Source of the DNA: Armatimonadota bacterium
Lineage (GTDB): Bacteria; Sysuimicrobiota; Sysuimicrobiia; Sysuimicrobiales; Humicultoraceae
DNA length: 64,000 nucleotides
Direction of reading: 5' to 3'
NCBI GenBank assembly: GCA_037443565.1
Contig: JBBIOB010000001.1
Coordinates: 97,774 to 161,773 of the forward strand
Shown: one piece after another, positions 5,790 to 63,220 of the stretch
How the letters are laid out: every line of letters begins with the position of its first letter
Position numbering within the stretch: position 1 is the stretch's first letter
Translations under genes and position numbers: made by a program
Notes under the pieces: generated by a model
Told to the model about the DNA's origin: nothing
Databases searched by the model: none
Seen by the model: the letters and a program-made list of their open reading frames with translations, nothing else

Positions 5790-5816
5790 TAGAGGGCAGC
5801 CGGTGGAGTAGCGGCG

Positions 5817-10216: not shown

Positions 10217-11368
10217 CTAGTCGGCCGGCAGCAGGTGCAGGACCTCCGGAAGCTCGACCCACACCCGCCGACCCCGAGGTAGCACCGCCGCGCGGGGATC
10301 TGGCAGGTCCACCAGGAGCTGCGAGGCGCTCAGCCGCACCACGTAGCGCACGATGGTGCCAAAGTACTCCGCGTCCTCAACGATGCCCTCCAGGGCCGAG
10401 GCTGGCCCTGCGCGTCGCGCCCCTGCCGCGGGGCCGTCAGCCGGTGCGGGAGCATCGGCGTCACGAATCCGCACCGCTTCCGGCCGCACCACCGCCAGCA
10501 CCCGCTGGCCCGTCTGCCAGGCCCGCCCGGTCCCGTGGACGTGCGCTTCGCCGTCAGGCAGGCGCAGCCGCAGCGTGCCGTCATCGACGGTGATCACTTC
10601 CGCCGGCAGCATGTTGACCTGTCCGACGAACCGGGCCACGAAGGGATCGGCCGGCCGCAGGTAGATCTCCTGCGGGGTCCCCACCTGGACCAGGCGGCCG
10701 TCGTGCATGACGGCCATGCGGTCGGAAATGCTCATGGCTTCCTGCTGGTCGTGGGTTACGAAGACCATGGTCAGATCGAGCTCGTCCTTGAGCCGGCGGA
10801 TCTCGGACCGCATCGCGATGCGCAGGTTGGCATCGAGGTTCGAGAGCGGCTCGTCCAGGAGCAGCACCCTGGGCCGCAGGACCAGCGCCCGGGCCAGCGC
10901 CACCCGCTGCTGCTGCCCGCCGGAGAGCTGATGGGGCCGGCGGCCTTCCAGCCCTTCGAGGCGGACGAGCCGGAGCGCATCGGCGACCCGCGCGCGGATC
11001 TCAGACGCAGGCCGCCGTCGCACCGAGAGGCCGTAGGCGACGTTCTCGAACACCGTCATGTGCGGGAACAGCGCGTAGTTCTGGAACACCATCGCGGTGG
11101 GGCGAAGGTTCGGCGGGACGCGGGTGATGTCGCGGTCCTCCAGGAGCACCGTCCCCTCGTCCGGCGTAGCGAAGCCGGCGATCACCCGCAGCAGCGTCGT
11201 CTTCCCACAGCCGCTCGGACCGATGAACGACGCGAGCTCACCGGCGGCAACAGACGCGGTCAGGCCGTCCACGGCGACCGTGGGGCCGAAGCGCTTGGTG
11301 ATCCCGCGGAGCTCCAGCGCGGGGCCGGGCGACCTCGGAGTCCGGGAATCGGGCGCGGATGGTATCAC
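10217..11368 (-). CDS. ABC transporter ATP-binding protein (PotA/FbpC family)
   Basis: Walker A GPSGCGKTT, signature LSGGQQQRV, Walker B LLLDEP, H-loop VTHD, plus a C-terminal TOBE-like regulatory domain. Confidence 0.85.
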   Translation of the reverse strand: MIPSAPDSRTPRSPGPALELRGITKRFGPTVAVDGLTASVAAGELASFIGPSGCGKTTLLRVIAGFATPDEGTVLLEDRDITRVPPNLRPTAMVFQNYALFPHMTVFENVAYGLSVRRRPASEIRARVADALRLVRLEGLEGRRPHQLSGGQQQRVALARALVLRPRVLLLDEPLSNLDANLRIAMRSEIRRLKDELDLTMVFVTHDQQEAMSISDRMAVMHDGRLVQVGTPQEIYLRPADPFVARFVGQVNMLPAEVITVDDGTLRLRLPDGEAHVHGTGRAWQTGQRVLAVVRPEAVRIRDADAPAPADGPAAGARRAGPASALEGIVEDAEYFGTIVRYVVRLSASQLLVDLPDPRAAVLPRGRRVWVELPEVLHLLPAD

Positions 11369-19063: not shown

Positions 19064-20181
19064 CAGGGCTCTCCCTCGGGCAGGGCATAGGCGTCCTCGC
19101 TGGAGAACGTGACCGTCGCCGGTCCCCCCACCGCGGGCAGGACGGTAGTGCCCACATTCGGAACGACTACCGCCATCTGACGGCCGCTGGCTAGCCGCAC
19201 GCGCATCCGAACCACCGGCCCCTCGTAGAAGACCTCCTCAAGCGTCCCCCGCAGGGCGTTGGCGCCTCCGGGGGTCTCGACGCCGGGCTCGTTCCCTGCG
19301 ACACACCGCAGCTTCTCGGGGCGGACGAACACCAGGCCCTGACGGCCGGCCTCGAGCCGTTCGGGGTTCCGGCAGACCAGCCGGCCTTCGGGGGTCTCCA
19401 CGACGACGCGCCCGTCCTCGACCGCGACGGTCCGGCCCGCGATGGCGTTGTTCTCGCCGACGAAGTACGCGACGAACTGCGTCTGCGGCTGCTCATAGAT
19501 CTCCGCCGGCGTGCCGATCTGCTCGATGCGGCCGCGGCTCATCACCGCGACCCGGTCCGACATCGCCAGGGCTTCACCCTGGTCGTGCGTAATGTAGATG
19601 AACGTTGTGCCCACGCGGTGCTGGATGGCCTTGAGCTCTTCCTTCATGTGCTCGCGCAGCTTGAGGTCCAGGGCGCCCAGCGGCTCGTCGAGCAGCAGCA
19701 CGGTCGGCTCGATGATGAGCGACCGGGCGATGGCCACCCGCTGCTTCTCGCCCCCCGACAGCTCATCGACGCGCTTGCTCCCATACCCGGGAAGGTTGAT
19801 GAGGTCGAGCTTGGCCGCCACGCGTGTGGCGATCTCACGCTCGGACACCCCGCGCATCCGCAGGCCGAAGGCGATGTTGTCGTACACGTTCATCAGCGGG
19901 AAGAGGGCGAGGTGCTGGAAGATCAGGCTGGTGGGCCGGCGGTTGGGTGGCACGCCCCGCATCGGCCGGCCGCCGATCAGGATCTCCCCTTCGTCGGGAT
20001 CGATGAATCCCGAGATCATGCGGAGGATGGTGGTCTTGCCGCACCCGCTGGGGCCGAGGATCGAGAAGAACTCGCCTCGGCCCACGTCGAGCGCGACGCC
20101 GGCGACCGCCGTGATATCGTGGTAGCGCTTGGTGACGTTGACGAGCTCGACGTCGACGTCGCGCCGGTGGGGATCGCTCAC
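19063..20181 (-). CDS. ABC transporter ATP-binding protein (PotA-like)
   Basis: Walker A GPSGCGKTT, LSGGEKQRV, LLLDEP, ITHDQ. C-terminal TOBE-like domain. Confidence 0.85.
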   Translation of the reverse strand: MSDPHRRDVDVELVNVTKRYHDITAVAGVALDVGRGEFFSILGPSGCGKTTILRMISGFIDPDEGEILIGGRPMRGVPPNRRPTSLIFQHLALFPLMNVYDNIAFGLRMRGVSEREIATRVAAKLDLINLPGYGSKRVDELSGGEKQRVAIARSLIIEPTVLLLDEPLGALDLKLREHMKEELKAIQHRVGTTFIYITHDQGEALAMSDRVAVMSRGRIEQIGTPAEIYEQPQTQFVAYFVGENNAIAGRTVAVEDGRVVVETPEGRLVCRNPERLEAGRQGLVFVRPEKLRCVAGNEPGVETPGGANALRGTLEEVFYEGPVVRMRVRLASGRQMAVVVPNVGTTVLPAVGGPATVTFSSEDAYALPEGEP

Positions 20182-30880: not shown

Positions 30881-33328
30881 GTGAAGTCTGAGGCGCAGGC
30901 GGTCATCATCGGTGGCGGGGTCTATGGGTGCAGCATCGCGTATCACCTCACCCGGATGGGGTGGCGCGACGTCGTGCTGGTGGAGAAAGGTGGGCTGACG
31001 GGCGGCGCCACCTTTCACGCCGCCGGCCTGGTCGGGCAGCTCCGCGGCTCGGTGACGCTCACACGGATGATCATGTACAGCGTGGAGCTCTACCGCGCGC
31101 TGCTGGCGGAGACCGGCCACGATCCCGACTGGCGCGAGACCGGGAGCCTGCGGCTCGCGTCGACCCCTGAACGCATGATCGAGCTCAAGCGCCACGCGGC
31201 CACGGCCCGGACCTTCGGCCTGCCCATGGAGCTGCTGACGCCGAAGGAGGCGGTCGACCTCTTCCCGGTGATGAGCCCCGAGGGGCTGCTGGGCGCGGCA
31301 TATCTCCCCACGGACGGCAGCGTCGACCCCAATGGTCTGACCTTTGCCTTCGCCAGGGGTGCGAGGAACTACGGTGCGGAGATCTCCACCGAGACCGAGG
31401 TCACCGGGATCACCGTGCGGGACGGCCGGGTCCGGGGCGTCGTCACGAACCGCGGGACGATTCGGACCGACGTGGTGGTGAACTGCGCGGGAATCTGGGC
31501 GGCGACCATCGGAGCCATGGCGGGCGTCACGGTCCCGGTCGTCGGCATCGAGCACCAGTACCTCCTCACCGGCCCGGTCGAGGGGACGCACCGCCGCATG
31601 CCGGTGGTGCGCGATCCGGACCTGCTCATCTACTTCCGCGAAGAGGTCCGCGGGCTGTGCATCGGTGGCTACGAGGCCAACCCGATTCCCTTCGGGCTCG
31701 ATGGGATCCCTGACGACTTCCACCACCGTCTGCTCGCGCCCAACTGGGAGCAGTTCGAGCAGCTCGCGAAGAACGCCGCGATCCGCATTCCCGCCGTGGA
31801 GAAGGCCGGTGTGCACAAGCTTATCAACGGGCCCGACGGATTCACCCCTGACGGCGACCTGATCCTGGGCGAGGCCCCGGAGGTGCGAGGCTTCTTCGTG
31901 GCCGGAGGCTCTCCGGGCATCGCGTGCGGGGGCGGGGTCGGCAAGGTCATGGCCGAGTGGATCGTCGAGGGCGCGCCCGGTATGGACATGTGGCGCATGG
32001 ACGTCCGGCGCTTCCAGGCGCACTACGCGGACCGGCGCTACGCGGCCGCGCGGGCGCTGGAAACCTACGAGAAGAACTACCTCCTGCATCCGCCATATGA
32101 GGAGCGGGAGTCCGCGCGCGGGCTGCGCCTGAGCCCGCCGCATCCGCGCCTGCGGGCGCTTGGCGCAGCCTTCGGCGAGAAGGCGGGCTGGGAGCGGCCG
32201 AACTGGTTTGCCAGCAACGAACCGGCGCAGGCCGCGGGCACCCCCCACACTCCTGCGCCGGCAGACTGGGCGCCGGCCGGATGGGCACGGCTCAACTGGT
32301 CGCCGGCGATCGGTGTCGAGCACCGGGCGGTGCGGGAAGCGGCCGGCCTGTTCGACTTCACCTCGTTCAGCAAGTTCGAGATGGAGGGACCGGGTGCGCT
32401 CAAGACCCTGCAGTGGCTGACCGACAATCAGATGGACAAGCCGCCCGGCAGCGTGATCTACACTCAGATGCTCAATGCGCGCGGCGGGATCGAGTGCGAC
32501 CTGACCGTCACCCGCCTTTCGGCCGAGCGCTTCATGATCGTCACCGGGAGCGGTTTTGGGGTGCACGATCTCGACTGGATCCGGCGGCACCTGCCGGACG
32601 ACGGCTCGGCGGCGATCCGTGAGGTCACGGCGGAGCTGTCCTGCATCGGCGTGTGGGGGCCGAACGCGCGGGAGATTCTGCGGCGGGTATGCGACGACGA
32701 CGTTTCGAATGCGGCGTTTCCGTACATGACGTGCAGGGAGATTCAGATCGTCGGTGTGCCCGTGCGCGCTCAGCGCGTGACCTACGTGGGCGAGCTGGGC
32801 TGGGAGCTGTATGTGCCGATCGGAGATGGCCTGAAAGTCTGGGACGCGCTGTGGGAGGCGGGACGGCCGTTTGGGCTTCGGCCCATTGGCTATCGCGCCG
32901 TCGACTCGCTGCGGCTGGAGAAGGCATACCGCTACTGGAGCGTCGACATCACCCCCGAGTACACGCCCTATGACTCCGGCCAGGCGTTCTGCGTCAGGCT
33001 CGACAAGGGCGACTTCCAGGGCCGCGGGGCGCTGCTGCGGCAGAAGGCCGACGGGCTGACGCAGCGGCTCTGCTGCCTGGTGCTGGCCGACCCCCGAATC
33101 GTTGCGCTCGGGAACGAGCCGGTGTACGAGGCCGAGCGGGTGGTCAGCCGGGTGACGAGCGGTGGATACGGGTACACGGTCGGCGAGAGTATCGCCTACG
33201 CGTACCTACCGGTCGGCCTGTCGGCCGTCGGCACGGGGTTGGCTGTCAGCATCGACGGTGAACGTGTTCCGGCCACGGTGGCGCGCGAGCCGCGCTACGA
33301 TCCCGCGAACAGCCGGATCAAGGCCTGA
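30881..33328 (+). CDS. Dimethylglycine/sarcosine dehydrogenase family protein (FAD DAO domain plus GcvT-like folate-binding domain), paralog 1
   Basis: 815 aa from the GTG at 30881 (AGGAGG 4 nt upstream). GGGVYGCSIAYHL dinucleotide fold, FHAAGL (covalent-FAD His motif), C-terminal aminomethyltransferase fold. About 65% identity to paralog 2. Confidence 0.8.
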   Translation: MKSEAQAVIIGGGVYGCSIAYHLTRMGWRDVVLVEKGGLTGGATFHAAGLVGQLRGSVTLTRMIMYSVELYRALLAETGHDPDWRETGSLRLASTPERMIELKRHAATARTFGLPMELLTPKEAVDLFPVMSPEGLLGAAYLPTDGSVDPNGLTFAFARGARNYGAEISTETEVTGITVRDGRVRGVVTNRGTIRTDVVVNCAGIWAATIGAMAGVTVPVVGIEHQYLLTGPVEGTHRRMPVVRDPDLLIYFREEVRGLCIGGYEANPIPFGLDGIPDDFHHRLLAPNWEQFEQLAKNAAIRIPAVEKAGVHKLINGPDGFTPDGDLILGEAPEVRGFFVAGGSPGIACGGGVGKVMAEWIVEGAPGMDMWRMDVRRFQAHYADRRYAAARALETYEKNYLLHPPYEERESARGLRLSPPHPRLRALGAAFGEKAGWERPNWFASNEPAQAAGTPHTPAPADWAPAGWARLNWSPAIGVEHRAVREAAGLFDFTSFSKFEMEGPGALKTLQWLTDNQMDKPPGSVIYTQMLNARGGIECDLTVTRLSAERFMIVTGSGFGVHDLDWIRRHLPDDGSAAIREVTAELSCIGVWGPNAREILRRVCDDDVSNAAFPYMTCREIQIVGVPVRAQRVTYVGELGWELYVPIGDGLKVWDALWEAGRPFGLRPIGYRAVDSLRLEKAYRYWSVDITPEYTPYDSGQAFCVRLDKGDFQGRGALLRQKADGLTQRLCCLVLADPRIVALGNEPVYEAERVVSRVTSGGYGYTVGESIAYAYLPVGLSAVGTGLAVSIDGERVPATVAREPRYDPANSRIKA

Positions 33329-33334
33329 CGGTCC

Positions 33335-34657
33335 GTGCCGGCGCCCTCCGAGCCAACGCCCGCCGAACGCGCCCTGGTTGTCTTCCCGGCAGGCTCCCCG
33401 GGCGAGTACAACCTCCCACCCAACCTGGTGACCGTCCTGGTTCGTGGGGAAGGCGCGTCGGTGTGGGACGCGCAGGGGCGCCGGTTCACCGACTTCACCA
33501 TGGGCTGGGGCTCGGTGCTGCTCGGCCACGCGCATCCCGCGGTGGTTGGCGCGGTCCGCGATCGCGCCGGCGACGGATCCAACTTCGCCTATGTGAGCGA
33601 GCCAGCGCTCAAGCTCGCGGAGGAGCTGGTCCGGGCGGTGCCCTGCGCCGAGCGCGTCCGGTTCTGCGCGTCCGGAACCGAAGCGACCGCCTACGCCGTC
33701 CGGCTGGCGCGTGCCGCTACCGGGCGGCCGAAAGTGCTGAAGTTCGAGGGCGCCTACCACGGCGCGAACGAGGTCGGGACCGCCAGTCTGTTTCCGACCC
33801 GCATGCTGGAGTTTCCGCAGGCCGAGCCCACGTCGGCCGGCCTGCCCCCGGGGGCCGTCGCCAACATCCTGGTCGGGCCGTACAACGATCTCGAGACGAC
33901 CGCGCGCATCACTGCGGCGTACCGGCGTGAGCTGGCCGCGATCATCGTGGAACCGCTCCACCGATGCACGCCGCCGCGCTCCGGCTTCCTCCAGGGGTTG
34001 CGCGACCTGGCCACCGAGGCCGGCGCGCTATTGGTGTTCGACGAGGTGGTGACCGGGTTTCGCCTGGCTTACGGTGGCGCGCAGGAGTACTACGGCGTGC
34101 GCCCCGACCTCGCGGCGCTGGGAAAGGCGCTCGGCGGCGGATATCCGATCGGCGCGGTCGCCGGACGTGCGGACATCCTCGACCTGGTGCGCGAGGATCG
34201 GCTGGGTCGGGACGACTACGTGTGGTTCGCATCATCCCTGGGCGGGAATCCCATCTCCACCGCGGCCGGGCTGGCGACGCTGGCCGAGCTGCGGAAGCCC
34301 GGCACCTACGATCGCCTCTTCGCGCTGGGGACGGGGCTACGCGACGGGCTGCGGTCGGTGCTGGAGGATGAAGGGATAACGGCCCATGTGCAGGGCGACG
34401 GTCCGCTGGCCGCGGTAGTGTTCACCGATCAGGAGGTCACCGACTACCGCGCGGCCGCGCGCGCAGACCGGCGGCGCGGCCGCGCGTTCCTCCTGGGCCT
34501 CTTTCGCCGCGGGATCTTCCTGAATCCCATGTCCACCAAGCTCTACCTTTCGCTCGCCCACACCGAGGCCGACATCGCGCGGCTCCTGGAGGCCGCGCGC
34601 GCGACCTTACGGGAGGAGATCAAGATCGCATCGCCTGGAGGTCACGATGAAGTCTGA
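33335..34657 (+). CDS. Class III (PLP-dependent) aminotransferase, glutamate-1-semialdehyde aminomutase-like
   Basis: 440 aa starting at the GTG at 33335. AT-III fold (GWGSVLLGHAHP, ASGTEA, EVVTGFR, PLP-Lys region); sits between the two DMGDH paralogs. Confidence 0.75.
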   Translation: MPAPSEPTPAERALVVFPAGSPGEYNLPPNLVTVLVRGEGASVWDAQGRRFTDFTMGWGSVLLGHAHPAVVGAVRDRAGDGSNFAYVSEPALKLAEELVRAVPCAERVRFCASGTEATAYAVRLARAATGRPKVLKFEGAYHGANEVGTASLFPTRMLEFPQAEPTSAGLPPGAVANILVGPYNDLETTARITAAYRRELAAIIVEPLHRCTPPRSGFLQGLRDLATEAGALLVFDEVVTGFRLAYGGAQEYYGVRPDLAALGKALGGGYPIGAVAGRADILDLVREDRLGRDDYVWFASSLGGNPISTAAGLATLAELRKPGTYDRLFALGTGLRDGLRSVLEDEGITAHVQGDGPLAAVVFTDQEVTDYRAAARADRRRGRAFLLGLFRRGIFLNPMSTKLYLSLAHTEADIARLLEAARATLREEIKIASPGGHDEV

Positions 34658-37109
34658 GGCACAGGCCGTCGTCATCGGCGGCGGGATCGTCGGCTGCAGC
34701 ATCGTCTACCACCTGTCGTTCATGGGATGGCGCGACGTCGTGCTCGTGGACAAGGCCGATCTCACCAGCGGATCCACCTGGCATGCCGCCGGGCTCGTGG
34801 GACAGCTGCGGGGCTCGCTCAGCCTGACGCGCATCATGATGTTCAGCGTCGAGCTGTATGCGCGCCTCGCCCAGGAGACCGGGCAGGAGACGGACTGGCG
34901 CCAGTGCGGCAGCCTGCGGCTGGCCTCGACGCCCCTGCGCATGGAAGAGAACCTGCGCCAGGCCGCGCTGGCGCGGACATTCGGGCTGCCCGTCGAGGTG
35001 CTGAGCGCCCACGAGGCGGTAGGGCTGTTCCCGCTGCTGAGTGAGACGGACCTCGTCGGCGCGGTCTACATGCCGACGGACGGCCGCGTGGACGGCAGCG
35101 GTGTGACGTTTGCAATGGCGCGCGGCGCGCGGAGCCGGGGCGTGGACATCTATACCAATACGACGGTGCAGCAGATCCAACTCAAGAACGGTCACGTGGA
35201 CGCGGTGGTCACCGACCGGGGAACCATCCGGACGCCGGTCGTGGTCAACGCCGCGGGCATGTGGGCCGACCAGATCGGCCGGATGGCCGGTGTGCGCGTG
35301 CCGATCGTCCCAATGCAGCACCAGTACCTGCTGACCGAGCCGATCGACGGCATGCGGCCCGAGTTCCCGGTGGTGCGCGATCCCGACCTGCGCGTGTACG
35401 CGCGCGAGGAGGTCCGGGGTCTCGTCGTCGGCGGGTTCGAGGCGCAGCCCGAGCCGTGGTCGACCGACGGTGTGCCCAACGAGTTCGTCCACCGGCTGCT
35501 GCCGACCAACTGGCCGATCTTCGAGCCGGTGGTCCGCAACGCGGCAAAGCGCATCCCGGCGTTCGAGCACGCCGAGATCTCGAAGGTCATCAACGGGCCC
35601 GAGGCGTTCACGCCCGACGGGGAGTTCATGATGGGCGAGGCGCCCGGCGTCCGGGGGTTCTTCGTCGCCGCGGGTTTCAACGCGTACGGGATCGCGGCCG
35701 GCGGCGGCGTGGGCCGCGTGCTTGCCGAGTGGATCGTCGACGGCCAGCCGAGCCTGGACGTATGGCGGATGGACATCCGGCGGTTCGGGCCGCAGTACGC
35801 GCACGCGTCGCACACGATAAGCCGGTCGGTGGAGGCATACACGCGCCGGTACGGCGCCGTGAGCCTGCCGTTCGAGGAATGGGACACCGCCCGCCGCTTC
35901 CGGTTGAGCCCGGTCTATCCGCGCCTAGTGGACCTGCGTGCGGCATTCGGCGAGAAGGGCGGATGGGAGCGGCCGAACTGGTTTGCCAGCAATGAGCCTG
36001 CCGGCGGCGGCACGGGCGCCGGGACCGTGGCGGCCCCTGCGGGGAGCTGGACCCCGCTGGGCTGGGCGCGGCACAACTGGTCGCCGGCCATGGCTGCGGA
36101 GCACCTGGCCGCGCGAGAGGCGGCAGGCCTCTTCGACTTCACGTCGTTCAGCAAGCTCGAGGTCAAAGGCGCGGGGGCGCTGGCGGCGTTGCAGTGGCTG
36201 ACGGACAACGAGATGGACAGGCCGCCGGGCAGCGTGACCTACACGCAGATGCTGAACGCCCGGGGCGGTATCGAGTGCGACCTGACGGTCACGCGACTGG
36301 GCCCGGACAGGTTCATGATCGTCACCGGCAGCGCCTTCGGCCCCCATGACCTGGACTGGATCCGCAAGCACCTGCCGGCCGACGGTTCGGTGACGGCAAC
36401 GGACATCACGACGGACCTCGCCTGCATCGGGCTATGGGGCCCCCGCGCCCGCGACGTCCTGCGGCGGGTGTGCGAGGAAGACCTGTCCGAGGCCGCGTTC
36501 CCCTACATGACGTGGCAGGAGATCCGTGCGGCAGGGGTTCCGGTGCGCGCGCTGCGCGTGACGTACGTCGGCGAGCTCGGCTGGGAGCTGTACGTGCGCC
36601 CCGACGATGCCCTGCGCCTCTGGGACGCGCTGTGGGAAGCGGGACGGCCGCTGGGCCTGCGGCCGGTCGGCTACCGCGCGGTGGACTCGCTGCGACTCGA
36701 GAAGGGCTACCGGTACTGGAGCGCGGACATCACGCCGGACTACACACCGTACGAGTCCGGCCAGGCGTTCTGCGTCAAGCTCGACAAGGGCGACTTCCAG
36801 GGCCGCGGCGCGCTGCTGCGGCAGAAGGCTGAAGGATTGACGCGGATGCTGTGCTGTCTGGTGCTGGCCGACCCGCAGCGGGTCGTGCTCGGCAACGAGC
36901 CGGTGTTCGAGGACGATCGGCTGGTGAGTCGCGTCACAAGCGGCGGATACGGCTACTACGTGGGCGAGAGCATCGCCTACGCGTACCTGCCGGTGCGCCT
37001 GGCGACGCTGGGTGCCGAGGTGAGCATCGAGGTCGACGGGATGCGCATCCCGGCGACGGTCCAGCGCGACCCGCGCCACGACCCGACCGGCAGCCGCATC
37101 AAGGCATAG
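34647..37109 (+). CDS. Dimethylglycine/sarcosine dehydrogenase family protein, paralog 2
   Basis: 820 aa, ATG at 34647 overlapping the aminotransferase stop by 11 bp. GGGIVGCSIVYHL, STWHAAGL (covalent FAD His), GcvT-like C-terminal domain. Confidence 0.8.
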   Translation: MKSEAQAVVIGGGIVGCSIVYHLSFMGWRDVVLVDKADLTSGSTWHAAGLVGQLRGSLSLTRIMMFSVELYARLAQETGQETDWRQCGSLRLASTPLRMEENLRQAALARTFGLPVEVLSAHEAVGLFPLLSETDLVGAVYMPTDGRVDGSGVTFAMARGARSRGVDIYTNTTVQQIQLKNGHVDAVVTDRGTIRTPVVVNAAGMWADQIGRMAGVRVPIVPMQHQYLLTEPIDGMRPEFPVVRDPDLRVYAREEVRGLVVGGFEAQPEPWSTDGVPNEFVHRLLPTNWPIFEPVVRNAAKRIPAFEHAEISKVINGPEAFTPDGEFMMGEAPGVRGFFVAAGFNAYGIAAGGGVGRVLAEWIVDGQPSLDVWRMDIRRFGPQYAHASHTISRSVEAYTRRYGAVSLPFEEWDTARRFRLSPVYPRLVDLRAAFGEKGGWERPNWFASNEPAGGGTGAGTVAAPAGSWTPLGWARHNWSPAMAAEHLAAREAAGLFDFTSFSKLEVKGAGALAALQWLTDNEMDRPPGSVTYTQMLNARGGIECDLTVTRLGPDRFMIVTGSAFGPHDLDWIRKHLPADGSVTATDITTDLACIGLWGPRARDVLRRVCEEDLSEAAFPYMTWQEIRAAGVPVRALRVTYVGELGWELYVRPDDALRLWDALWEAGRPLGLRPVGYRAVDSLRLEKGYRYWSADITPDYTPYESGQAFCVKLDKGDFQGRGALLRQKAEGLTRMLCCLVLADPQRVVLGNEPVFEDDRLVSRVTSGGYGYYVGESIAYAYLPVRLATLGAEVSIEVDGMRIPATVQRDPRHDPTGSRIKA

Positions 37110-40730: not shown

Positions 40731-41857
40731 CCCCTGGCGAACACGCGGATGCGATCGGCCGGGAGCGACACGGTGATGGTCTTCCCTGGGGCCAGGTCGC
40801 CTTCACGCTGGAGGTGGATGGGCACGTCGGCCCGGACCTCCGCCGTGCCCGCGGCCGCGGGCCGCAGCGTCGCGCGATAAAACGATCCCAGGAAATCCAG
40901 GGCGACAATCTCCACCGGCATGGCATTGACGGCGGGGGCGCCCGCGTTTCGGACATCCACATCCTCGGGCCGGAAACACACCCGAACCAGGGCGCCCGGG
41001 GACAGTCCGTCCGTGGTGTCGCACCGCAGCTCCGTGGTCCCCACGCGGATCACGTCAGGGCCCATCAGCACGCCGTCCAGGAAGTTCATCTCTCCCACGA
41101 AGTCGGCGACGAACGGCGTCGCGGGATTCCGGTAGATCTCGATCGGCGTGCCGATCTGCTCCACGACCCCATGGTTCATGACGACGATGCGGTCGGCCAT
41201 CGTCAGCGCCTCTTCCTGGTCGTGGGTGACCAGGACCGTCGTGATGCCGAGCCGGCGCTGGAGGCTGCGAATCTCGTGCCGGAGGCGGATGCGCAGCCGG
41301 GCGTCGAGGGCCGAGAGCGGTTCGTCGAGGAGCAGCAGGCCCGGCGACGGCGCCAGTGCCCGCGCGAGCGCCACCCGCTGCTGCTGCCCGCCGGAGAGCT
41401 GCGCCGGATACTTGCGCGCCGCATCGGGCATGCCGATGAGCGCCAGGAGCTCACCCACCCGCGCGGCGATCTGCTCGCGCCTCATCCTCCGGCTGTGCAG
41501 CCCGTACGCGACGTTGTCGAAGACCGTCAGGTTCGGAAAGAGCGCGTACGACTGAAACACGATGCCGAAGTCGCGCTGCGCGGGCGGCAGAGCGGAGATG
41601 TCGCGATCCTGATGCAGGATCCGGCCCTGCGTCTGGACCTCCAGGCCCATGATGATCCGCAGCAGCGTCGTCTTGCCGCACCCCGAGGGGCCGAGCAGGC
41701 AGACGAACGCGCCGTGCTCGATGTCGAACGAGACGTCCATCAGCGCGGTGAAGGTTCCAAACCGCTTCCAGATGGACTCGATGCGCAGATAGGCCGCCGC
41801 GGTGTGGCCTGCTGCAGTGTGCTGTGCGCCGGCGGCGCCGGAGTGCACGCGATTCAT
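40727..41857 (-). CDS. ABC ATP-binding protein (PhnT/PotA-like)
   Basis: Walker A GPSGCGKTT, LSGGQQQRV, LLLDEP, VTHDQ. The start is assigned to MNRVH...; an upstream Met at 41914 is possible. Confidence 0.8.
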   Translation of the reverse strand: MNRVHSGAAGAQHTAAGHTAAAYLRIESIWKRFGTFTALMDVSFDIEHGAFVCLLGPSGCGKTTLLRIIMGLEVQTQGRILHQDRDISALPPAQRDFGIVFQSYALFPNLTVFDNVAYGLHSRRMRREQIAARVGELLALIGMPDAARKYPAQLSGGQQQRVALARALAPSPGLLLLDEPLSALDARLRIRLRHEIRSLQRRLGITTVLVTHDQEEALTMADRIVVMNHGVVEQIGTPIEIYRNPATPFVADFVGEMNFLDGVLMGPDVIRVGTTELRCDTTDGLSPGALVRVCFRPEDVDVRNAGAPAVNAMPVEIVALDFLGSFYRATLRPAAAGTAEVRADVPIHLQREGDLAPGKTITVSLPADRIRVFARG

Positions 41858-56468: not shown

Positions 56469-57494
56469 ATGCACATCGGCGTGCTGACCGGCGGCGGGGA
56501 CGCGCCCGGTCTGAATGCAGCCATCCGGGCGATCGTCCGTCGAGCCCTCGAAGGGACACACGAGGTCACGGGTATCCGCAATGGCTGGCTCGGGTTGCTC
56601 GAAGGGGATGTCATCCCGCTGACGCGCGACAGCGTGTCGGGCATCCTGCACCGGGGGGGGACGATCCTCGGTACCTCGCGGACGAATCCATTCAAGAATC
56701 CCGACGGCGGCGAGCGCCTGCTGGAGGCGCTCGAGCGTCTGGGCATCAACGCGCTGATTCCCATCGGCGGCGACGACACGCTCAGCGTGGCGCTGAAGCT
56801 CTCGCAGATGGGCGTGCGGGTGGTGGGGGTTCCTAAGACGATGGACAACGATGTGCCCGGGACCGACTACACGATCGGCTTCGACACGGCCGTGAATACC
56901 GTCATGGACGCGTGCGACAAGCTCCACACCACGGCCGAGGCGCATCACCGGGTCATGATCGTCGAGGTGATGGGCCGCGACGCGGGATGGGTGGCCGGTA
57001 TCGGCGGTCTGGCCGGCGGGGCCGATGTGGTCCTCGTGCCCGAGGTGCCCTTCACCATCGACGAGGTCTGCGAGATCGTCCGGCGGCGCCGGGAGCGGAC
57101 CCGGACGTTCAGTATCGTCGTGGTGTCCGAGGGGGCCAAGCCCAGCGACTTCGGGGTGCAGATCACGCAGGACGCGCGCGTCGACGAGTTCGGACACGTG
57201 CGCCTGGGCGGCGTCGGGTCCCTGCTGGCGCGAGAGATCGAGGCCCGCACCGGCTACGAGACGCGCGTGACGGTGCTGGGACACCTGCAGCGCGGCGGCG
57301 CGCCGACGGTCTTCGACCGCGTGCTCGCCACGCGCTACGGTGTGGCCGCGGTGGAAGCGCTGGAGGCCGGCCAGTCGGGCGTGATGGTCGCGGCGCAGGG
57401 GACGAAGATCATCTCGGTCAGCCTCGAGGAGGCGCTCTCGGGCTCAAACAAGCTCGATTTGCAGCTCTACCGGCTTACGAGGCTGTTTCATTGA
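56469..57494 (+). CDS. pfp: 6-phosphofructokinase, probably pyrophosphate-dependent type
   Basis: GGGDAPGLNAAIRA, GGDDT (Asp instead of Gly) and PKTMDND (Lys) match the PPi-PFK signature positions; MGR motif present. Confidence 0.8.
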   Translation: MHIGVLTGGGDAPGLNAAIRAIVRRALEGTHEVTGIRNGWLGLLEGDVIPLTRDSVSGILHRGGTILGTSRTNPFKNPDGGERLLEALERLGINALIPIGGDDTLSVALKLSQMGVRVVGVPKTMDNDVPGTDYTIGFDTAVNTVMDACDKLHTTAEAHHRVMIVEVMGRDAGWVAGIGGLAGGADVVLVPEVPFTIDEVCEIVRRRRERTRTFSIVVVSEGAKPSDFGVQITQDARVDEFGHVRLGGVGSLLAREIEARTGYETRVTVLGHLQRGGAPTVFDRVLATRYGVAAVEALEAGQSGVMVAAQGTKIISVSLEEALSGSNKLDLQLYRLTRLFH

Positions 57495-57550
57495 ATGCGT
57501 TCTTTCAAGGAGGCTACACCGCTACATCGAACTCTTCCACAAGTACGTCC

Positions 57551-57596
57551 TAACCCGGCGGAGCCGGAACCAAACAGGGCCGGCTCCGCCGGGTTA
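57551..57596 (+). terminator. GC-rich perfect hairpin (17-bp stem, 12-nt loop) downstream of pfp; likely factor-independent terminator lacking a U-tract
   Basis: TAACCCGGCGGAGCCGG / loop AACCAAACAGGG / CCGGCTCCGCCGGGTTA. It abuts the IS left end. Confidence 0.45.
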
Positions 57597-57621
57597 GTCC
57601 CTTACGAGTCAGATCGTGCGC
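57594..57621. repeat. IS left terminal inverted repeat (28 bp)
   Basis: Exact reverse complement of 59195-59222. Confidence 0.8.
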
Positions 57622-57651
57622 CGCACGAGCTGGTGAGCGACAATAGGGAGC

Positions 57652-59187
57652 ATGAACACATTCCTCGAACGGCACGCGCAGAGGATTGCGGGGACCCTCT
57701 CCTGCTTTGACCGGGTGGTGATCCCCGGCACACTCCCGGAGATCTGCCACGCCGAGGCCGTGGCCCGGCACCTGACCGCAAAGGGGGTTCGCTTCTTCGA
57801 CTACCCCCGGTGGGCCGAACCGTTCCGCGAGGCCCTCCGCGCCCACGCCGAGCGGTTGGCCCAGGAGCACGGCCTGGAGATCGAGTTCATCCGGCGCAAG
57901 AACTTCCGGAAGGAGGAGCGCATCAAGGAGATCGTTGCCACACGCGGAGACCACGAAGGGCTCGTCCACATCTTCTCGGCGATGGAGCCGTGCCCCTCGT
58001 TCCGCCCCTGGCATGACAAGGCCACCGGCAAGACCTTCCTCCGCCCCACGGAGGCCAAGTGCCTCCACTACTACTTCTACTTCATCGACCGGGAGCTGGG
58101 GCTCTGCTACCTGCGGGTGCCGACCTGGGCCCCGTTCCGTCTGCAGTTCTACTTCAACGGCGACAACGCCCTGGCCCGTAAGCTCCAGCGGGCCGGCATT
58201 CGCTACACCCTGCGCGACAACGCCTTTGTGGAGTGCGCCGACTACCTCCGGGCGCAGGCCTTGGCCGATGCCCTGGATGTCCACCGCCTGCACCGGCACC
58301 TGAACCGGCTGGCGGCCCGCTACTGCCCGGTAGTCCGGCACTTTCCTGCGGGCTACCACTGGAGCCTGATGCAGGTCGAGTACGCCACCGACGTGGTGTT
58401 CCGGCGCCAGGCCGACTTCCAGCCGCTCTACGCGGCGCTCACGTACACCGCCATCCACGCCATCAAGCCCGAGCACGTGGCCACCTTCCTCGGGCGCCGG
58501 CTGACTGATGCCTACCAAGGAGAAGCCGGCAACGCCTTCGACACCCGCATCCTGGGGACGCGGATCAAGCACCACCTGGGGCCCGTGGCGATCAAGCTCT
58601 ACGACAAGTGCGGCCTGCTCGGCCGCGTCGAGTGTACCGCCAATGATGTCAGCTTCTTCAAACACCACCGCACGGTGGAACACCGCGACGGGACCGCAGA
58701 GGTCAAGCTGGCCCCGGTGCGCAAGTCGATCTACAGCCTGCCGGTCCTGCGGGACCTCATGCGGGCGGCCACCCGTCGCTACCTGGACTTCCTGGCGGCC
58801 ATCGACGACCCCACGCCGGGGCTGCGCACCCTGGAGAAGATCGCGGCACCCGTCCGCGAGGGCGAGCGCAGCTACCGGGGGTTCAACCTGTTTCATGGCG
58901 CGGACCTCGACCTATTCCAGGCCATCCTGCGAGGGGAATTCACGATCAGCGGATTCCAAGCGCGCCAGCTCCGTGCCATCCTGCCCGGGCTCTCCAGTGC
59001 CCAGTTGTCGCGCCTGCTCAAGCGGCTCCGCCTCCACGGGCTCATCAAGAAGATCGGCAAGCGCTACAAGTACTATCTCACGACCATGGGCCGTACCATC
59101 GCCACTGCGGCGCTGAAACTGCGCGAGCTCGTGATCATCCCAGCCCTTAATCACCCGATCTCCACTCCCGCAGGGCGAACTTCATGA
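57652..59187 (+). CDS. IS transposase (511 aa) with a C-terminal winged-helix-like segment
   Basis: Single long ORF filling the element between the IRs. C-terminal LSSAQLSRLLKRLRLHGLIKKIGKRYKYYLTTMG resembles a wHTH. Acidic-residue-rich central region consistent with a DDE transposase. Family not determined from memory. Confidence 0.65.
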   Translation: MNTFLERHAQRIAGTLSCFDRVVIPGTLPEICHAEAVARHLTAKGVRFFDYPRWAEPFREALRAHAERLAQEHGLEIEFIRRKNFRKEERIKEIVATRGDHEGLVHIFSAMEPCPSFRPWHDKATGKTFLRPTEAKCLHYYFYFIDRELGLCYLRVPTWAPFRLQFYFNGDNALARKLQRAGIRYTLRDNAFVECADYLRAQALADALDVHRLHRHLNRLAARYCPVVRHFPAGYHWSLMQVEYATDVVFRRQADFQPLYAALTYTAIHAIKPEHVATFLGRRLTDAYQGEAGNAFDTRILGTRIKHHLGPVAIKLYDKCGLLGRVECTANDVSFFKHHRTVEHRDGTAEVKLAPVRKSIYSLPVLRDLMRAATRRYLDFLAAIDDPTPGLRTLEKIAAPVREGERSYRGFNLFHGADLDLFQAILRGEFTISGFQARQLRAILPGLSSAQLSRLLKRLRLHGLIKKIGKRYKYYLTTMGRTIATAALKLRELVIIPALNHPISTPAGRTS

Positions 59188-59194
59188 CCACCTT

Positions 59195-59222
59195 GCGCAC
59201 GATCTGACTCGTAAGGGACTAA
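59195..59222. repeat. IS right terminal inverted repeat (28 bp)
   Basis: Exact reverse complement of 57594-57621. Confidence 0.8.
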
Positions 59223-59303
59223 GGGGTTGAATGCTGCCTGGGTCGGAAAGACTGCCTGCCTGACTTCCTCCAGCACCTCCGGATCCATCCGGGAGGGTCC
59301 GCG

Positions 59304-60242
59304 GTGGGCCGTATTGCGCGCGAACTGGGCATCAGCCGGCAGCACGTCTACAGGCTGCGCGACCGCGTGCGGGAGATCTACGGGATCTGGGTGGACGACG
59401 CCTCATCAGACCCTCTCGTCCCACGGGGCTATCTGAGGATCCGAGCCCGCGAGACCTCCGGTGTAGCCGTCACGCTCAGCGCGCAGGAGGCGGGGGCGCT
59501 GCTCACCGCTGCCGCGCGCATCGAGAACCTGCCTCCCCCAGTGAGGCAAGCCCTCCGGCGTATCGTCCAAGGGACCCCGGTTGCGTCGGAAGCGGAGCGC
59601 GGCCCCATCGTTTACTCCCCCTTGGCGGACGAGTATGCCCCCGGACTCTACGAGAAGGTCGCAGAGGCGATTCGCGGGCGACGCACCGCGCGGATCACCT
59701 ACCGCAATGCCAGGGGCGAGGAGAAGACCTACCGGTTCGACCCCTACATCCTGATCGCCCGCGACCCCCACCTCTACCTGGTGGGCGCCAACCACAACAG
59801 CCGGGCCGCGGGTCACGACCCGGTCCACGAACTGCGACTGGACCAGATTGTCGAGTTCCGCCTTCTGCGGGACCGTTTTCCCCTTCCGGACTTCGACGTG
59901 CGGGCCTACTGCCGGGGAAGGTTCCGATGGTTTCCCGGCGAGGGTAAACCCATCCGAGTCCGGGTGCGTTTCAGCCCTCAGAAGGCAGGCTTCATCCGCC
60001 GCATGCGCCACCATCCCACGCAGACCCTCACCGAGGAATTGGACGGAAGCGTGGTGTGGGAAGTGCGAGTCCCCTTCTGCGAAGACCTCGTACACTGGAT
60101 AGTGGGCTACGGCCCCCACGCCACCGTCATCGAGCCCTACGACCTCAGGCGCAGGGTAGTGGAGTGGGCAAGAGGTGCCGCGGAAGCCAACTTGTCGCCC
60201 GAGGGTGCGACAGTCGAGGCGTATCCTGGGATGAGAAGGTGA
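59304..60242 (+). CDS. WYL-domain transcriptional regulator (wHTH - WYL - WCX), CRISPR-Cas/defence-associated type
   Basis: HTH IARELGISRQHVYRLRD, WYL domain ITYRNARGEEKTYRFDPYILIARDPHLYLVGANH...HELRLDQIVEF, C-terminal WCX-like region. The annotated GTG start lies 81 nt from the IS right end. The reading frame stays open back to the stop inside the IS IRR. Confidence 0.75.
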   Translation: MGRIARELGISRQHVYRLRDRVREIYGIWVDDASSDPLVPRGYLRIRARETSGVAVTLSAQEAGALLTAAARIENLPPPVRQALRRIVQGTPVASEAERGPIVYSPLADEYAPGLYEKVAEAIRGRRTARITYRNARGEEKTYRFDPYILIARDPHLYLVGANHNSRAAGHDPVHELRLDQIVEFRLLRDRFPLPDFDVRAYCRGRFRWFPGEGKPIRVRVRFSPQKAGFIRRMRHHPTQTLTEELDGSVVWEVRVPFCEDLVHWIVGYGPHATVIEPYDLRRRVVEWARGAAEANLSPEGATVEAYPGMRR

Positions 60243-60338: not shown

Positions 60339-60512
60339 ATGAGGGTGCGGGATTTCAAGACCTTCTTCAGGATGGCGACGGGTAAGGATCCGTTCCCCTA
60401 CCAGACGTCGCTCGCCGAGGGCAAGGCGTTCCCTGAGCTCGTCCGCATTCCCGCGCGAGCAGGAAAGACCGCAGGGGCGATCCTGGCGCGGTGTGCGAAG
60501 AGAGTCGCATGA
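60339..60512 (+). other. Small ORF mimicking the Cas3 N-terminal Q-motif and Walker A (cas3 5' duplicate or remnant), ATGA-coupled to cas3
   Basis: FFRMATGKDPFPYQTSL...IPARAGKTAGAIL parallels cas3 FWSLTGFSPMNWQCRL...IPTGLGKTSVIVI. The ORF stops right after the Walker A. Its stop TGA (60510-12) overlaps the cas3 ATG (60509-11). Upstream in-frame ATGs at 60279 and 60321. Confidence 0.4.
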
Positions 60513-63220
60513 ACAGCAGCTTCGAGGAGCGCTTCTGGAGTCTGACGGGGTTCTCACCCATGAACTGGCAGTGCCGGTTGTTCAAGCGCTTTGTCGCGGA
60601 CGACCTGCCAGATGCCTGCGATATCCCGACCGGTCTAGGGAAAACCTCTGTTATTGTCATCTGGCTACTTGCACTCGTCCGGCAAGCCGAGGACGGCAGG
60701 GTGAACCTGCCGCGACGCCTTGTCTACATCGTCAACCGACGCACCGTGGTCGATCAGGCGACAGAGACGGTGGAGCGCTTGCGGAGCCGTCTCCTGGAGC
60801 CAGGAGCCCAGGAATGGCAAGACCACGCCGATACGCTGTCCGAAATCGCGGAGGCCCTGGACTGTCTGCGTGCCTCCGACGGGGCCCCGCTGGGAGTTAG
60901 CACGCTGCGCGGAGAGCTTGCGGACAATGAAGAGTGGAAAGCCGATCCCGCACGGCCGGCGATCGTTGTCGGCACCATTGACATGATTGGCAGCAAGCTT
61001 CTCTTCAGCGGCTACGGCGACGGACGCTACGGACGTGCGCATCATGCTGGCCTAATCGGGCAGGACGCGCTAGTTGTCCATGACGAGGCACACCTCACGC
61101 CCGCCTTCAGCGATCTTCTCCATGCTATTGCTCAAGAACAGGCCCGAGAAAGCGCGCGCAGCGCCTGCTTCGGGCATCCCGTCCGCGTGATCGAGCTATC
61201 GGCGACGACGCGACCGAGCGAAGGAGGGCCCCATTTCGACAAGATCTTCACGTTGGAATCGGAGGACGAAAAGGACGGGATCGCCCGCGACCGCCTGACG
61301 GCGGCGAAGCGACTGCAGGTTCACCCGGCTCCAGAGGACTCGGTCACGAACAAGATGGTCGAGCTCAGCAAGGCGCATGAGGGGGAGAGAGCCAAGATCT
61401 TGATATATGTCCGCTCTCCCGAACAGGCTGGACAGGTTGCCTCGGCTCTCGCGAAGTCCCTGGGGAAGGGCGCCGAGGAACGAGTCGCCCTTCTCACCGG
61501 CACGATCCGCGGGCACGAGCGCGATGGGCTCCTCAAGACAAACCTGGTCTATCGCGCGTTGCTGGATCCTGATTGTCGCGTTGAGAGAACGGTGTATCTG
61601 GTCAGCACTTCCGCTGGCGAGGTCGGGATTGATCTGGATGCCGATCACCTGGTCTGCGACCTGACGACGCTCGATGCGCTGATTCAGCGGGTGGGGCGTG
61701 TCAACCGTCGCGGCGGCAAGGGGCGCGAAGCGCGTGTGCACGTCGTCGGGGACGCTCCGGGCAAGGATAGGCCGTCCAAGGTCGATATGGCCGTCGCGAC
61801 CACGCTCAGACTTCTGCGGCGATGGGACGAAGCATCAGAAGGGGGCGTTGACGTCAGTCCCGGAAACCTCCTGAGGCTTCTCGGAGCCGCGAAGCCTCAG
61901 GATATCGAGAAAGCCTTCTCGCCAAGACCGGAAGGCCCGCCGTTAACCGATATCCTGCTGGACTCCTGGTCGCTGACGAGCATCCAGAAGATGCCGGGCC
62001 GGCCAGAGGTGGCGGCATTTCTCCACGGACTCACGCACGATCCGCCGGACACGTTTGTCGCCTGGCGGCGGGAGATTTCCATTCTCGAGAAGGCCACGGT
62101 CGACGAACCCTCCCTCCGTGACTGGTTTGGTGCCTGTCGCGTCAATGCTCGGGAGCGGCTGCGGGACCGAACGGATCGCGTAAAGGCGTCGCTGGCCCGA
62201 TTGCTCAAGGTCCACCGGGACACCGACAAACACTTCGACTTCTCCGTTGTCCTGCTCGACGAGCGCGGCGATGCTCGGTGGTCCAAGCTGTCGGAGATCG
62301 TGAAAGAGGACGTCAACCTGGACTATCGCACGGTGGTACTCCCGGTGGAAGCAGGCGGTCTCGACCGGAACGGGATGCTCGACCCTACGGCTGTGAAGAT
62401 CCCCGATGGAGTCTCCCCTGATGTGGCCGAGGAGGGCTCGACCGATGACCGCCGGGAGCGGTGGCTGCATCGCCGGTCGGTGGACGGCGAGCGATACGAA
62501 CGGTTGCTTACGCGGGAGATCTTCGACGCCCCACCGGCAGAGCTGCGAGAGAAGGAACGGATTTCGCTGCACCAGCCGGAAGAAGCGGAGGAGGACGAGG
62601 AAGCCGAAACGGTCGAGCTTGTGCTTCTGGTATCGCCCGCGCAGTCGGCGCTGGTGGACCCAGAGACGGCCAGTGGCCGGCAGACCCTGGCGGATCACAC
62701 CGGGGCGATCGCAGCACAGATGTCCGCAATCGCCGAACGATTGGGCCTCGCTGAGCCAATCCGAGTCGCGCTGGTTACAGCTGCGCGCTGGCATGACAGA
62801 GGCAAAGACCGTTCGGTCTGGCAGCGCTATGCGCACAACGATCGCGGCAGTGAGCCTCTGGCGAAGTCCGTGAGATACTTGCATCCCCGCGTCCTCGGAG
62901 GCTATCGTCATGAGTTCGGTTCGCTGCTCGACGCGGTAGCTAGCGACGATCTTCAGCAGTGTACGGAACCTGACTTGGTACTCCACCTAATCGCAGCGCA
63001 TCATGGCTGGGCCCGGCCGCATTTCGAGCCACGATCGCACGACAACACCCACACGACCGCGGCGAACGACAAGGCAGCTTTGCAGGTGATGCGCCGGTTC
63101 GGGCAATTGCAGCAGCGCTTCGGGCGCTGGGGGCTGGCGTGGTTGGAATCATTGCTGCGTTGTGCCGACATCGCGGCTTCCACCGCCACCCCTTCCGGTA
63201 CCGAGACGGCGGGGAGGTGA
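60509..63220 (+). CDS. cas3: Cas3 helicase-nuclease with C-terminal HD domain (type I-G / I-U architecture)
   Basis: N-terminal Q motif/Walker A (PMNWQ, PTGLGKT), DEAH box (VVHDEAH), helicase C motifs. C-terminal HD nuclease motifs LADHTGA, ARWHDRGK, YRHEFGS, IAAHHGW, CADIAAS. HD at the C-terminus is the type I-G arrangement. The GTG at 60491 is an alternative start. Confidence 0.8.
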   Translation: MNSSFEERFWSLTGFSPMNWQCRLFKRFVADDLPDACDIPTGLGKTSVIVIWLLALVRQAEDGRVNLPRRLVYIVNRRTVVDQATETVERLRSRLLEPGAQEWQDHADTLSEIAEALDCLRASDGAPLGVSTLRGELADNEEWKADPARPAIVVGTIDMIGSKLLFSGYGDGRYGRAHHAGLIGQDALVVHDEAHLTPAFSDLLHAIAQEQARESARSACFGHPVRVIELSATTRPSEGGPHFDKIFTLESEDEKDGIARDRLTAAKRLQVHPAPEDSVTNKMVELSKAHEGERAKILIYVRSPEQAGQVASALAKSLGKGAEERVALLTGTIRGHERDGLLKTNLVYRALLDPDCRVERTVYLVSTSAGEVGIDLDADHLVCDLTTLDALIQRVGRVNRRGGKGREARVHVVGDAPGKDRPSKVDMAVATTLRLLRRWDEASEGGVDVSPGNLLRLLGAAKPQDIEKAFSPRPEGPPLTDILLDSWSLTSIQKMPGRPEVAAFLHGLTHDPPDTFVAWRREISILEKATVDEPSLRDWFGACRVNARERLRDRTDRVKASLARLLKVHRDTDKHFDFSVVLLDERGDARWSKLSEIVKEDVNLDYRTVVLPVEAGGLDRNGMLDPTAVKIPDGVSPDVAEEGSTDDRRERWLHRRSVDGERYERLLTREIFDAPPAELREKERISLHQPEEAEEDEEAETVELVLLVSPAQSALVDPETASGRQTLADHTGAIAAQMSAIAERLGLAEPIRVALVTAARWHDRGKDRSVWQRYAHNDRGSEPLAKSVRYLHPRVLGGYRHEFGSLLDAVASDDLQQCTEPDLVLHLIAAHHGWARPHFEPRSHDNTHTTAANDKAALQVMRRFGQLQQRFGRWGLAWLESLLRCADIAASTATPSGTETAGR

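Follow-up and report, generated by a model that had tools for sequence, protein, structure and literature searches.

The stretch of DNA analysed here (the window) comprises 64,000 nucleotides from an Armatimonadota bacterium (GenBank assembly GCA_037443565.1, contig JBBIOB010000001.1, positions 97,774 to 161,773) and carries, towards its downstream end, a gene for a regulator with a winged helix-turn-helix (wHTH), a WYL and a WCX domain, followed on the same strand by the CRISPR-associated gene cas3. We find that positions 57554–59222 of the window are very probably one 1669-bp insertion sequence (IS) of an unannotated family, lodged in the leader of the WYL regulator gene. An initial annotation of this DNA had already placed an IS directly 5′ of the regulator gene that precedes cas3, and this placement stands. 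That annotation had described a classical IS of 1629 bp with 28-bp terminal inverted repeats (IRs) and GGG on both sides, inserted, in one of its two readings, in frame into a WYL coding region starting at ATG 57495. An IS in the leader of a regulator gene is ordinary; the interest lies in the element itself.

Boundaries of the insertion

Two uninterrupted orthologous loci, L001 (JGI 3300025525) and L002 (Logan), share the gene order pfk-WYL-cas3 with the window. Comparison with such related loci, proposed as a check by the initial annotation, places the extra DNA of the window at 57554–59222. On the left, window positions 57501–57553 align at ~60% to a block of ~55 bp that both orthologous loci conserve immediately before the WYL start, and on the right, the window aligns from position 59223 onwards to the Shine-Dalgarno and start region of both loci. 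Two sister elements (L096 and L097, P0003, 83% amino acid identity) occupy two differing sites, and their flanks diverge exactly upstream of C-CTAA-CCCGG, not at the supposed IR. Copies aligned within six long-read metagenome-assembled genomes (MAGs) share similarity that starts at C-CTAA-CCCGGnnnAGCCGGAACCAA and stops at ...GTAAGGnACTAA, with unrelated flanks and no duplication; in these six multi-copy sets, similarity is lost exactly at the CTAA/CCCGG step of C-CTAA-CCCGG on the left and after ...ACTAA on the right. The left end of the element is thus 57554 (57550 if the CTAA is counted) and not 57594, the family and the sister copies putting it 40–44 bp further out than the arm of the long repeat that had been taken for it.

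Foreign DNA at this position could also stem from assembly, as a repeat-induced chimera that joined pfk to WYL-cas3 in the MAG. ISs often cause mis-joins in metagenomes, and the source is apparently a single NCBI contig. Against a chimera, the same pfk-WYL-cas3 order is present in two independent related loci, and an independent Logan contig (L004) reproduces both junctions with one mismatch over 1629 bp, which leaves an artefact with next to no probability. This contig (Logan SRR11582161, 1680 bp) has a left flank of exactly 30 nt (k-1, with k = 31) and a right flank of 21 nt. Such lengths may mean that the assembly graph branches at the junction and that alleles with and without the element coexist in the sample.

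Origin of the apparent terminal repeats

The features from which the 1629-bp element had been drawn are all present. Its two 28-nt arms, at 57594–57621 (TTAGTCCCTTACGAGTCAGATCGTGCGC) and 59195–59222, are 100% complementary, had 0 matches in 100 shuffles and form the sole perfect long inverted repeat in the 64-kb window. GGG occurs at 57591–57593 and again at 59223–59225, 1629 + 3 equals 1632 or 3 × 544, and deletion of 57594–59225 joins ATG 57495 to the WYL frame without a stop. Their interpretation did not survive the comparison with relatives. The left GGG lies inside the element and the right GGG is host DNA, so that neither belongs to a target duplication, and the true insert of 1669 bp is not a multiple of three; the GGG pair and the frame neutrality are coincidences. 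With 57554–59222 removed, the reconstructed empty site has an in-frame TAA (57551–57553) 18 nt upstream of 59238, and an open frame from 57495 arises only because the wrong segment (57594–59225) was taken out.

The long repeat itself traces back to a 42-bp inverted junction copy on the minus strand at 57580–57621 (GCGCACGATCTGACTCGTAAGGGACTAA plus CCCGGCGGAGCCGG), which sits 30 nt inside the left end and is the exact reverse complement of a junction in which the right end (28 nt) meets the first 14 nt of the left end across a single CTAA. Because this copy pairs with the right end, it produces the 'perfect 28-bp IR', and because it also pairs with the true left end, it produces the 18-bp hairpin beside it. 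The initial annotation was right that a hairpin exists here (its DNA fold has z = −8), while its stem has 18 bp (57550–57567 with 57580–57597) rather than 17 and its right arm shares 4 nt (TTAG) with the start of the supposed left IR. The hairpin had been taken for a possible insertion target or for the terminator of the upstream gene, then called pfp; it is instead the left end of the element paired with the internal inverted copy. A repetitive extragenic palindrome (REP)-like target or pfk terminator was rejected, since the arm does not occur elsewhere in the window above chance and the hairpin is part of the element.

L096 and L097 carry the same internal segment in a diverged form, and the rest of the family lacks it. 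Across the family, left and right ends are no more complementary than in the shuffled null, except in the window and sister elements, which rules out a family-wide subterminal inverted repeat. As judged from these sequences, the inverted segment is an inherited internal feature of the sub-lineage of the window and not a transposition end. One might speculate that it is a binding site for the element's protein near the promoter of its gene.

The classical 1629-bp model has in its favour the perfect repeat, the GGG on both sides, the length divisible by three and the open frame that its own deletion creates. The ortholog indel at 57554–59222 contradicts it, as do the absence of the IR from the rest of the family and the start of the regulator in all homologues (see below), and the peptide MRSFKEATPLHRTLPQVRPNPAEPEPNRAGSAG, which belongs to its extended reading frame, has no counterpart in any homologue. 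It implies a same-species empty site reading ...CCGGCTCCGCCGGGGTTGAATG... and a protein starting at 57495, which is already contradicted, and we consider the model scarcely tenable.

Ends, target and spread of the element family

The element has a single, intact open reading frame (ORF), which lies between the repeats at 57652–59187 (+) and encodes a presumed transposase of 511 aa with an unrecognised core and a C-terminal winged helix. Around 8,000 close homologues of this protein were found (7,335 representatives of 50%-identity clusters at E ≤ 1e-3), most of them on contigs of ~1.6–2 kb, a length typical of repeats that break assemblies. A scan of species-representative genomes recovered 556 relatives in Rokubacteria, Planctomycetota, Gamma- and Deltaproteobacteria, Acidobacteriota, Actinomycetes, Bacteroidota and others; 80 loci were kept, and ~80 related elements enter the comparison of ends and boundaries. 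In long-read MAGs, 3–5 (identical) copies are present per genome in unrelated contexts. These multi-copy relatives with fixed ends in differing contexts confirm that the element is mobile, as had been proposed. One set of 24 contigs (P0084) represents a single locus seen in many samples and does not count as multi-copy.

The ends of the family are asymmetric. The left end consists of a small hairpin, CCCGGnnnAGCCGG, followed by AACCAAA, and the right end closes in ...GTAAGGGACTAA. The hairpin of the window element (CCCGGCGGAGCCGG, 57554–57567, +) has a 5-bp stem and a 3-nt loop, the adjoining motif AACCAAACAGGG occupies 57568–57579 (+), and the right end, formerly the 'right IR', lies at 59195–59222 (+), its final motif being the consensus of 65 distinct right ends. 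Among 34 distinct left ends from many phyla, A20, C21, C22 and A23 are invariant and A19, A24 and A25 are conserved in at least 90%. The stem is maintained by covariation: hairpin pair 6-18 is CG in 31/34 and GC in 3/34 left ends, and pair 7-17 is CG in 29/34 and UA (T-A) in 5/34. There are thus two independent compensatory changes and zero one-sided ones, and 0/500 shuffles reach the observed covariation score.

Insertion takes place at a fixed target. Of 77 distinct left flanks, 74 have a C before the tetranucleotide, which reads C[T/C]AA, whereas the right flanks are random; in the window, the CTAA target or core is at 57550–57553 (+), with C at 57549 before it. Upstream of C-CTAA, positions -2 to -6 are depleted in G (4–9 G out of 77, loci L005–L098), a possible sign of a broader target preference or of a strand bias. 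The number of CTAA copies that belong to one unit follows from an element lodged inside hsdR, a type I restriction gene. The frame of the two independently called hsdR pieces is restored only when the element body and one tetranucleotide are removed (1656 bp), and, therefore, each unit comes with one CTAA and no further duplication. This element (P0013, 79% amino acid identity; L092 1410–3070, also L090, L091 and L093–L095) precisely interrupts the 3′ part of hsdR. Its contigs from sister samples mix differing left and right flanks, a pattern of several copies or of recombination among copies. Either the left or the right CTAA may travel along with the element, and the unit can equivalently be written as 57554–59222 or as 57550–59218.

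In two loci (L015, about 170–190, and L017, about 60–80), the right end of one copy abuts the left end of the next, head to tail, through a single CTAA. Such junctions are expected if the CTAA of a right end serves as a target, or if they are circle junctions. With multiple copies, fixed ends, one gene and the interruption of a gene, the element is an IS in the broad sense; the outer terminal IRs and the target duplication of a classical IS are both absent.

Some observations concern the outer reaches of the family. Plasmid pOLGA1 of Paraburkholderia phytofirmans (L098, 252808–254322) carries a 49%-identical homologue between two cytochrome c genes, with the left-end motif of the family (GCCGGACGAGCCGG); it is annotated as an 'ArsR family transcriptional regulator'. 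One family member (P0343) is attributed to a MAG of Candidatus Helarchaeota, an Asgard archaeon, and represents either real archaeal carriage or contamination of the bin. A sister group at ~24–26% identity, annotated as hypothetical, is present in 1–4 copies on megaplasmids of Burkholderia, Rhodococcus and Mycobacterium, and the superfamily may include further mobile lineages with different ends.

The 511-aa protein

The domain searches covered the window protein and 66 diverse family members. Sequence and profile searches against Pfam, NCBIfam, PHROGs, PADLOC and PDB detected no catalytic domain and only a weak C-terminal winged helix of the MarR/HxlR/ArsR type. The IS-family hidden Markov models (HMMs) of NCBIfam and Pfam (DDE, HUH, serine, tyrosine and DEDD) had no match, the wHTH scored below or near the cut-offs, and the PDB profile search returned a MarR-type wHTH only. 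Exact-sequence look-ups of this protein, and likewise of the 312-aa WYL protein, found no record. In their source databases, the homologues are named hypothetical proteins or MarR or ArsR regulators and none is named a transposase, including those of the cultured Desulfocicer vacuolatum and Paraburkholderia phytofirmans.

From the 66-sequence alignment, AlphaFold2 gave a confident model (pLDDT 95.3, pTM 0.86) with two modules of long antiparallel strands and a helical wHTH tail. Foldseek found no match to this model in PDB at E ≤ 1e-3, the best being TATA-binding proteins (TBPs) with low TM scores, and a fold search of BFVD gave the same weak TBP-like signal. Invariant residues of the family are D20, R21, E112, Y141, Y143, N169, N190, E243, K315, R325 and E327; they are mostly located on strands and are candidate active-site residues.

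The protein could also be an ordinary transcription factor of the MarR/ArsR kind, with the repeats being incidental or the gene a cargo; its sole recognisable domain, the C-terminal winged helix, and the names given to its homologues agree with this. However, it is the only gene in a ~1.65-kb unit with hyper-conserved ends, which occurs in 3–5 identical copies per genome and in many phyla, its homologues lie mostly on ~1.6–2-kb fragments, and one copy precisely interrupts hsdR. In addition, conservation extends over ~430 residues beyond the wHTH, some acidic, tyrosine and lysine positions being invariant. A plain transcription factor is, therefore, very improbable.

As a presumed recombinase, the 511-aa protein would recognise the hairpin end and would cut and join DNA at CTAA. 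By analogy, its mode of action would resemble that of hairpin-plus-tetranucleotide elements (IS200/IS605-like) or of core-site elements (IS110-like), with an unrelated protein. It is conceivable, at somewhat less than an even chance in our estimate, that this ~500-aa protein founds an undescribed class of transposases or recombinases with a double beta-sheet core of faint likeness to the TBP saddle and a wHTH, which moves elements of ~1.65 kb by means of a terminal hairpin and C-CTAA in most bacterial phyla and comprises more than 7,000 clusters at 50% identity. The family was judged to be unrecognised against Pfam, NCBIfam, PHROGs, PADLOC, PDB and PGAP naming, and our literature searches, some of which were too broad to inform, found no description of it. 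Should the family indeed be undescribed, genome annotation would lack a major group of ISs, and thousands of genomes would contain mobile-element genes mislabelled as 'MarR/ArsR regulators'. It would also offer a new site-specific enzyme for DNA cutting and joining to study.

Comparison with known mobile elements

Among characterised systems, the IS200/IS605 elements (IS608 and ISDra2, which move as single strands by 'peel and paste') share with the window element the lack of terminal IRs and of target duplication, as well as an end hairpin. In both, a fixed tetra- or pentanucleotide stands at the left end, the right end closes in a short cleavage motif of its own and junctions share one copy of the motif. 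Of the end features of that family, a hairpin (here at the left end), a fixed target on the 5′ side of that end and the lack of a duplication were all found. Unlike IS200/IS605, however, the family has a ~500-aa protein without Y1 signal (Y1_Tnp and NF033573, of the Y1 HUH class, had no match at E ≤ 0.1 in the window protein or in the 66 family members), its hairpin directly abuts CTAA and there is no TnpB-like second gene.

The IS110/IS1111 elements, with their DEDD transposases and bridge or seeker RNA (bioRxiv 10.1101/2024.04.26.591405), are likewise site-specific, lack classical IRs, have a short core on both sides and carry non-coding DNA between the left end and the gene. The subterminal IRs of the IS1111 group resemble the internal inverted copy in the sub-lineage of the window. 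The DEDD and Transposase_20 profiles (PF01548, PF02371 and NF033542) had no match to the 511-aa protein. In contrast to IS110/IS1111, all lineages use one and the same target, C-CTAA, instead of a lineage-programmed one, and the non-coding left region measures only ~85–100 nt and has no Rfam match. The preference for a CTAA/YTAR tetranucleotide recalls the IS5 group of the IS5 family (PMC5493358, PMC11677980), whose DDE_Tnp_1 transposase, terminal IRs and true 4-bp duplication are all absent from the window element.

The WYL regulator gene and the probable effect of the insertion

The regulator gene occupies 59238–60242 (+). Its product belongs to the wHTH-WYL-WCX proteins, with Pfam matches to WYL (47.1 bits, cut-off 21.8) and WCX (68.7 bits, cut-off 23.9) and a PADLOC WYL match at E 2e-40; the HTH matches are sub-threshold (22.6 vs 28.1), yet the helix-turn-helix region is conserved in all homologues. 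A search with 59223–60242 recovered P0121, which is the annotated form of 312 aa, and two 334-aa proteins at 88% identity (P0122 and P0123), and more distant homologues were found in Thermus, Calidithermus and others.

The start of the gene can be located from these relatives. All 11 aligned homologues begin within 2 residues of the column that corresponds to window codon 59238, and the stretch DFLQxLRxHPxG that follows is conserved, with F15, L19, P23 and G25 invariant in 12/12 sequences. The database annotation starts at GTG 59304 and drops 22 conserved residues. The initial annotation had recognised the peptide LPDFLQHLRIHPGG upstream of this GTG as the missing first helix of the wHTH, and it was correct in this, the peptide being genuine coding sequence that is kept in 11/11 aligned homologues. 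Its proposed fusion to ATG 57495 fails on the common start column. In L002, moreover, pfk is followed after 131 bp by the GTG of the WYL gene, with an in-frame TGA 9 nt upstream, which excludes an N-terminal extension. At the start column, L001 and the Logan loci L002 and L003 have GTG, and the window has CTG (59238–59240), which is also found at this position in the independent contig L004.

The 15-nt remnant of the leader between element and gene (59223–59237, +) keeps a Shine-Dalgarno-like GGGG and aligns to AAGGGGGCTTACGGCTGC-GTG in L001 and to GGGTTTGAGGTTAC-GTG in L002. Judged by its ~60% alignment to the conserved block of the orthologues, the block at 57501–57549 (+), on the other side of the element, is the region that originally preceded the WYL gene and has been displaced, and it is a putative promoter or operator. 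On this sequence comparison, the insertion is in the 5′ leader, between the conserved upstream block and the ribosome-binding site, 15 nt upstream of the ancestral start and in the same orientation as pfk and the WYL gene. The initial annotation had left open whether the IS split the N-terminus or hit the promoter; the coding sequence is not split, and the promoter or leader option was essentially right.

The regulator gene would thereby lose its own promoter and depend for transcription on read-through from the element or from pfk, and translation would have to begin at the weak CTG 59238, or at GTG 59304 with loss of the conserved first helix. Its output is probably reduced. The wHTH-WYL-WCX proteins CapW and BrxR are repressors of adjacent defence operons (PMC11662680, PMC9122601, PMC9122589; general background on such regulators in PMC4012209). 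Like them and other CRISPR-linked WYL proteins, the window gene combines wHTH, WYL and WCX and lies directly upstream of a defence operon on the same strand, and it differs from them in the IS that lies upstream of it and in the CTG that occupies its start position. By this analogy, a reduced regulator would most likely derepress cas3 and the type I-G genes found downstream of it in L001 and L002. The CTG start and the separation from the promoter together make a plausible natural knock-down of a CRISPR-linked defence regulator.

It may also be that the insertion is real and has no regulatory effect, the WYL gene being transcribed by read-through and translated well enough from CTG 59238 or GTG 59304. 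Element, pfk and WYL gene share one strand, no terminator-like site was detected from the ORF stop at 59187 to 59238, and the GGGG is retained in front of an ORF that is otherwise intact and 88% identical to its orthologues, all of which agree with a silent insertion. Nevertheless, 1669 bp have come between the gene and the block that the orthologues conserve upstream of it, CTG is seldom used as a start codon and is a weak one, and a start at 59304 would forgo F15, L19, P23 and G25. We regard the absence of any effect as unlikely, though with a share of probability that is far from negligible.

Several points weigh against our reading of 57554–59222 as an IS in the leader of a regulator gene that it knocks down. 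With regard to the boundaries, this reading implies an empty-site allele of the same species without CCCGGCGGAGCCGGAACCAAACAGGGCCGGCTCCGCCGGG; a search of JGI metagenome contigs for this allele (ACAAGTACGTCC-N0-12-GTTGAATGCTGCC) gave 0 matches, and likewise 0 matches for any allele of the WYL 5′ end. The pre-insertion sequence was reconstructed from loci with 88%-identical WYL proteins, whose upstream block aligns to that of the window at only ~60%, and the choice between the left and the right CTAA as the travelling copy gives equivalent unit coordinates. With regard to the consequences, the promoter and terminator scan detected no such sites in or around the element, apart from one weak terminator-like site inside the 3′ end of pfk, and the transcriptional effect is one that we infer. 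CTG can initiate translation at a low rate, and the regulator may still be made. The sign of its action on cas3 is that of a repressor by analogy, and could be that of an activator. As for the element's protein, the candidate active site (D20, E112, Y141, Y143, E243, K315 and E327) is a guess from conservation.

Genomic context

Upstream of the element, the phosphofructokinase gene pfk lies at 56469–57494 (+; Pfam PFK, E 2.5e-114). Downstream of the regulator, cas3 at 60491–63220 (+; Pfam Cas3-like_C_2, DEAD and Helicase_C) opens what is probably a type I-G (formerly I-U)-like cas operon. The window, which ends at 64000, contains cas3 alone of the type I-G set, and the full set is present in L001 and L002, where Cas_GSU0053, Cas_GSU0054 and a Cas4-Cas1 fusion follow cas3. 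No CRISPR array was found in the 64-kb window. The GC content of the element is not distinct from that of its flanks, and an Rfam scan of 57400–59400 had no match.

In L001, a 371-aa nucleotidyltransferase gene (NTP_transf_2, 5459–6574) stands between pfk and the WYL gene, and there are two tandem PFK genes. L002 has no nucleotidyltransferase gene at this place, which makes the pfk-WYL spacer a variable spot in the lineage. Elsewhere in the window, diverged direct repeats of 60–78% identity (10607–10906, 19441–19740, 41078–41377 and 30882–36346) resemble paralogous genes for transporters or ATPases and a tandem gene duplication of ~3.8 kb, unrelated to the insertion.

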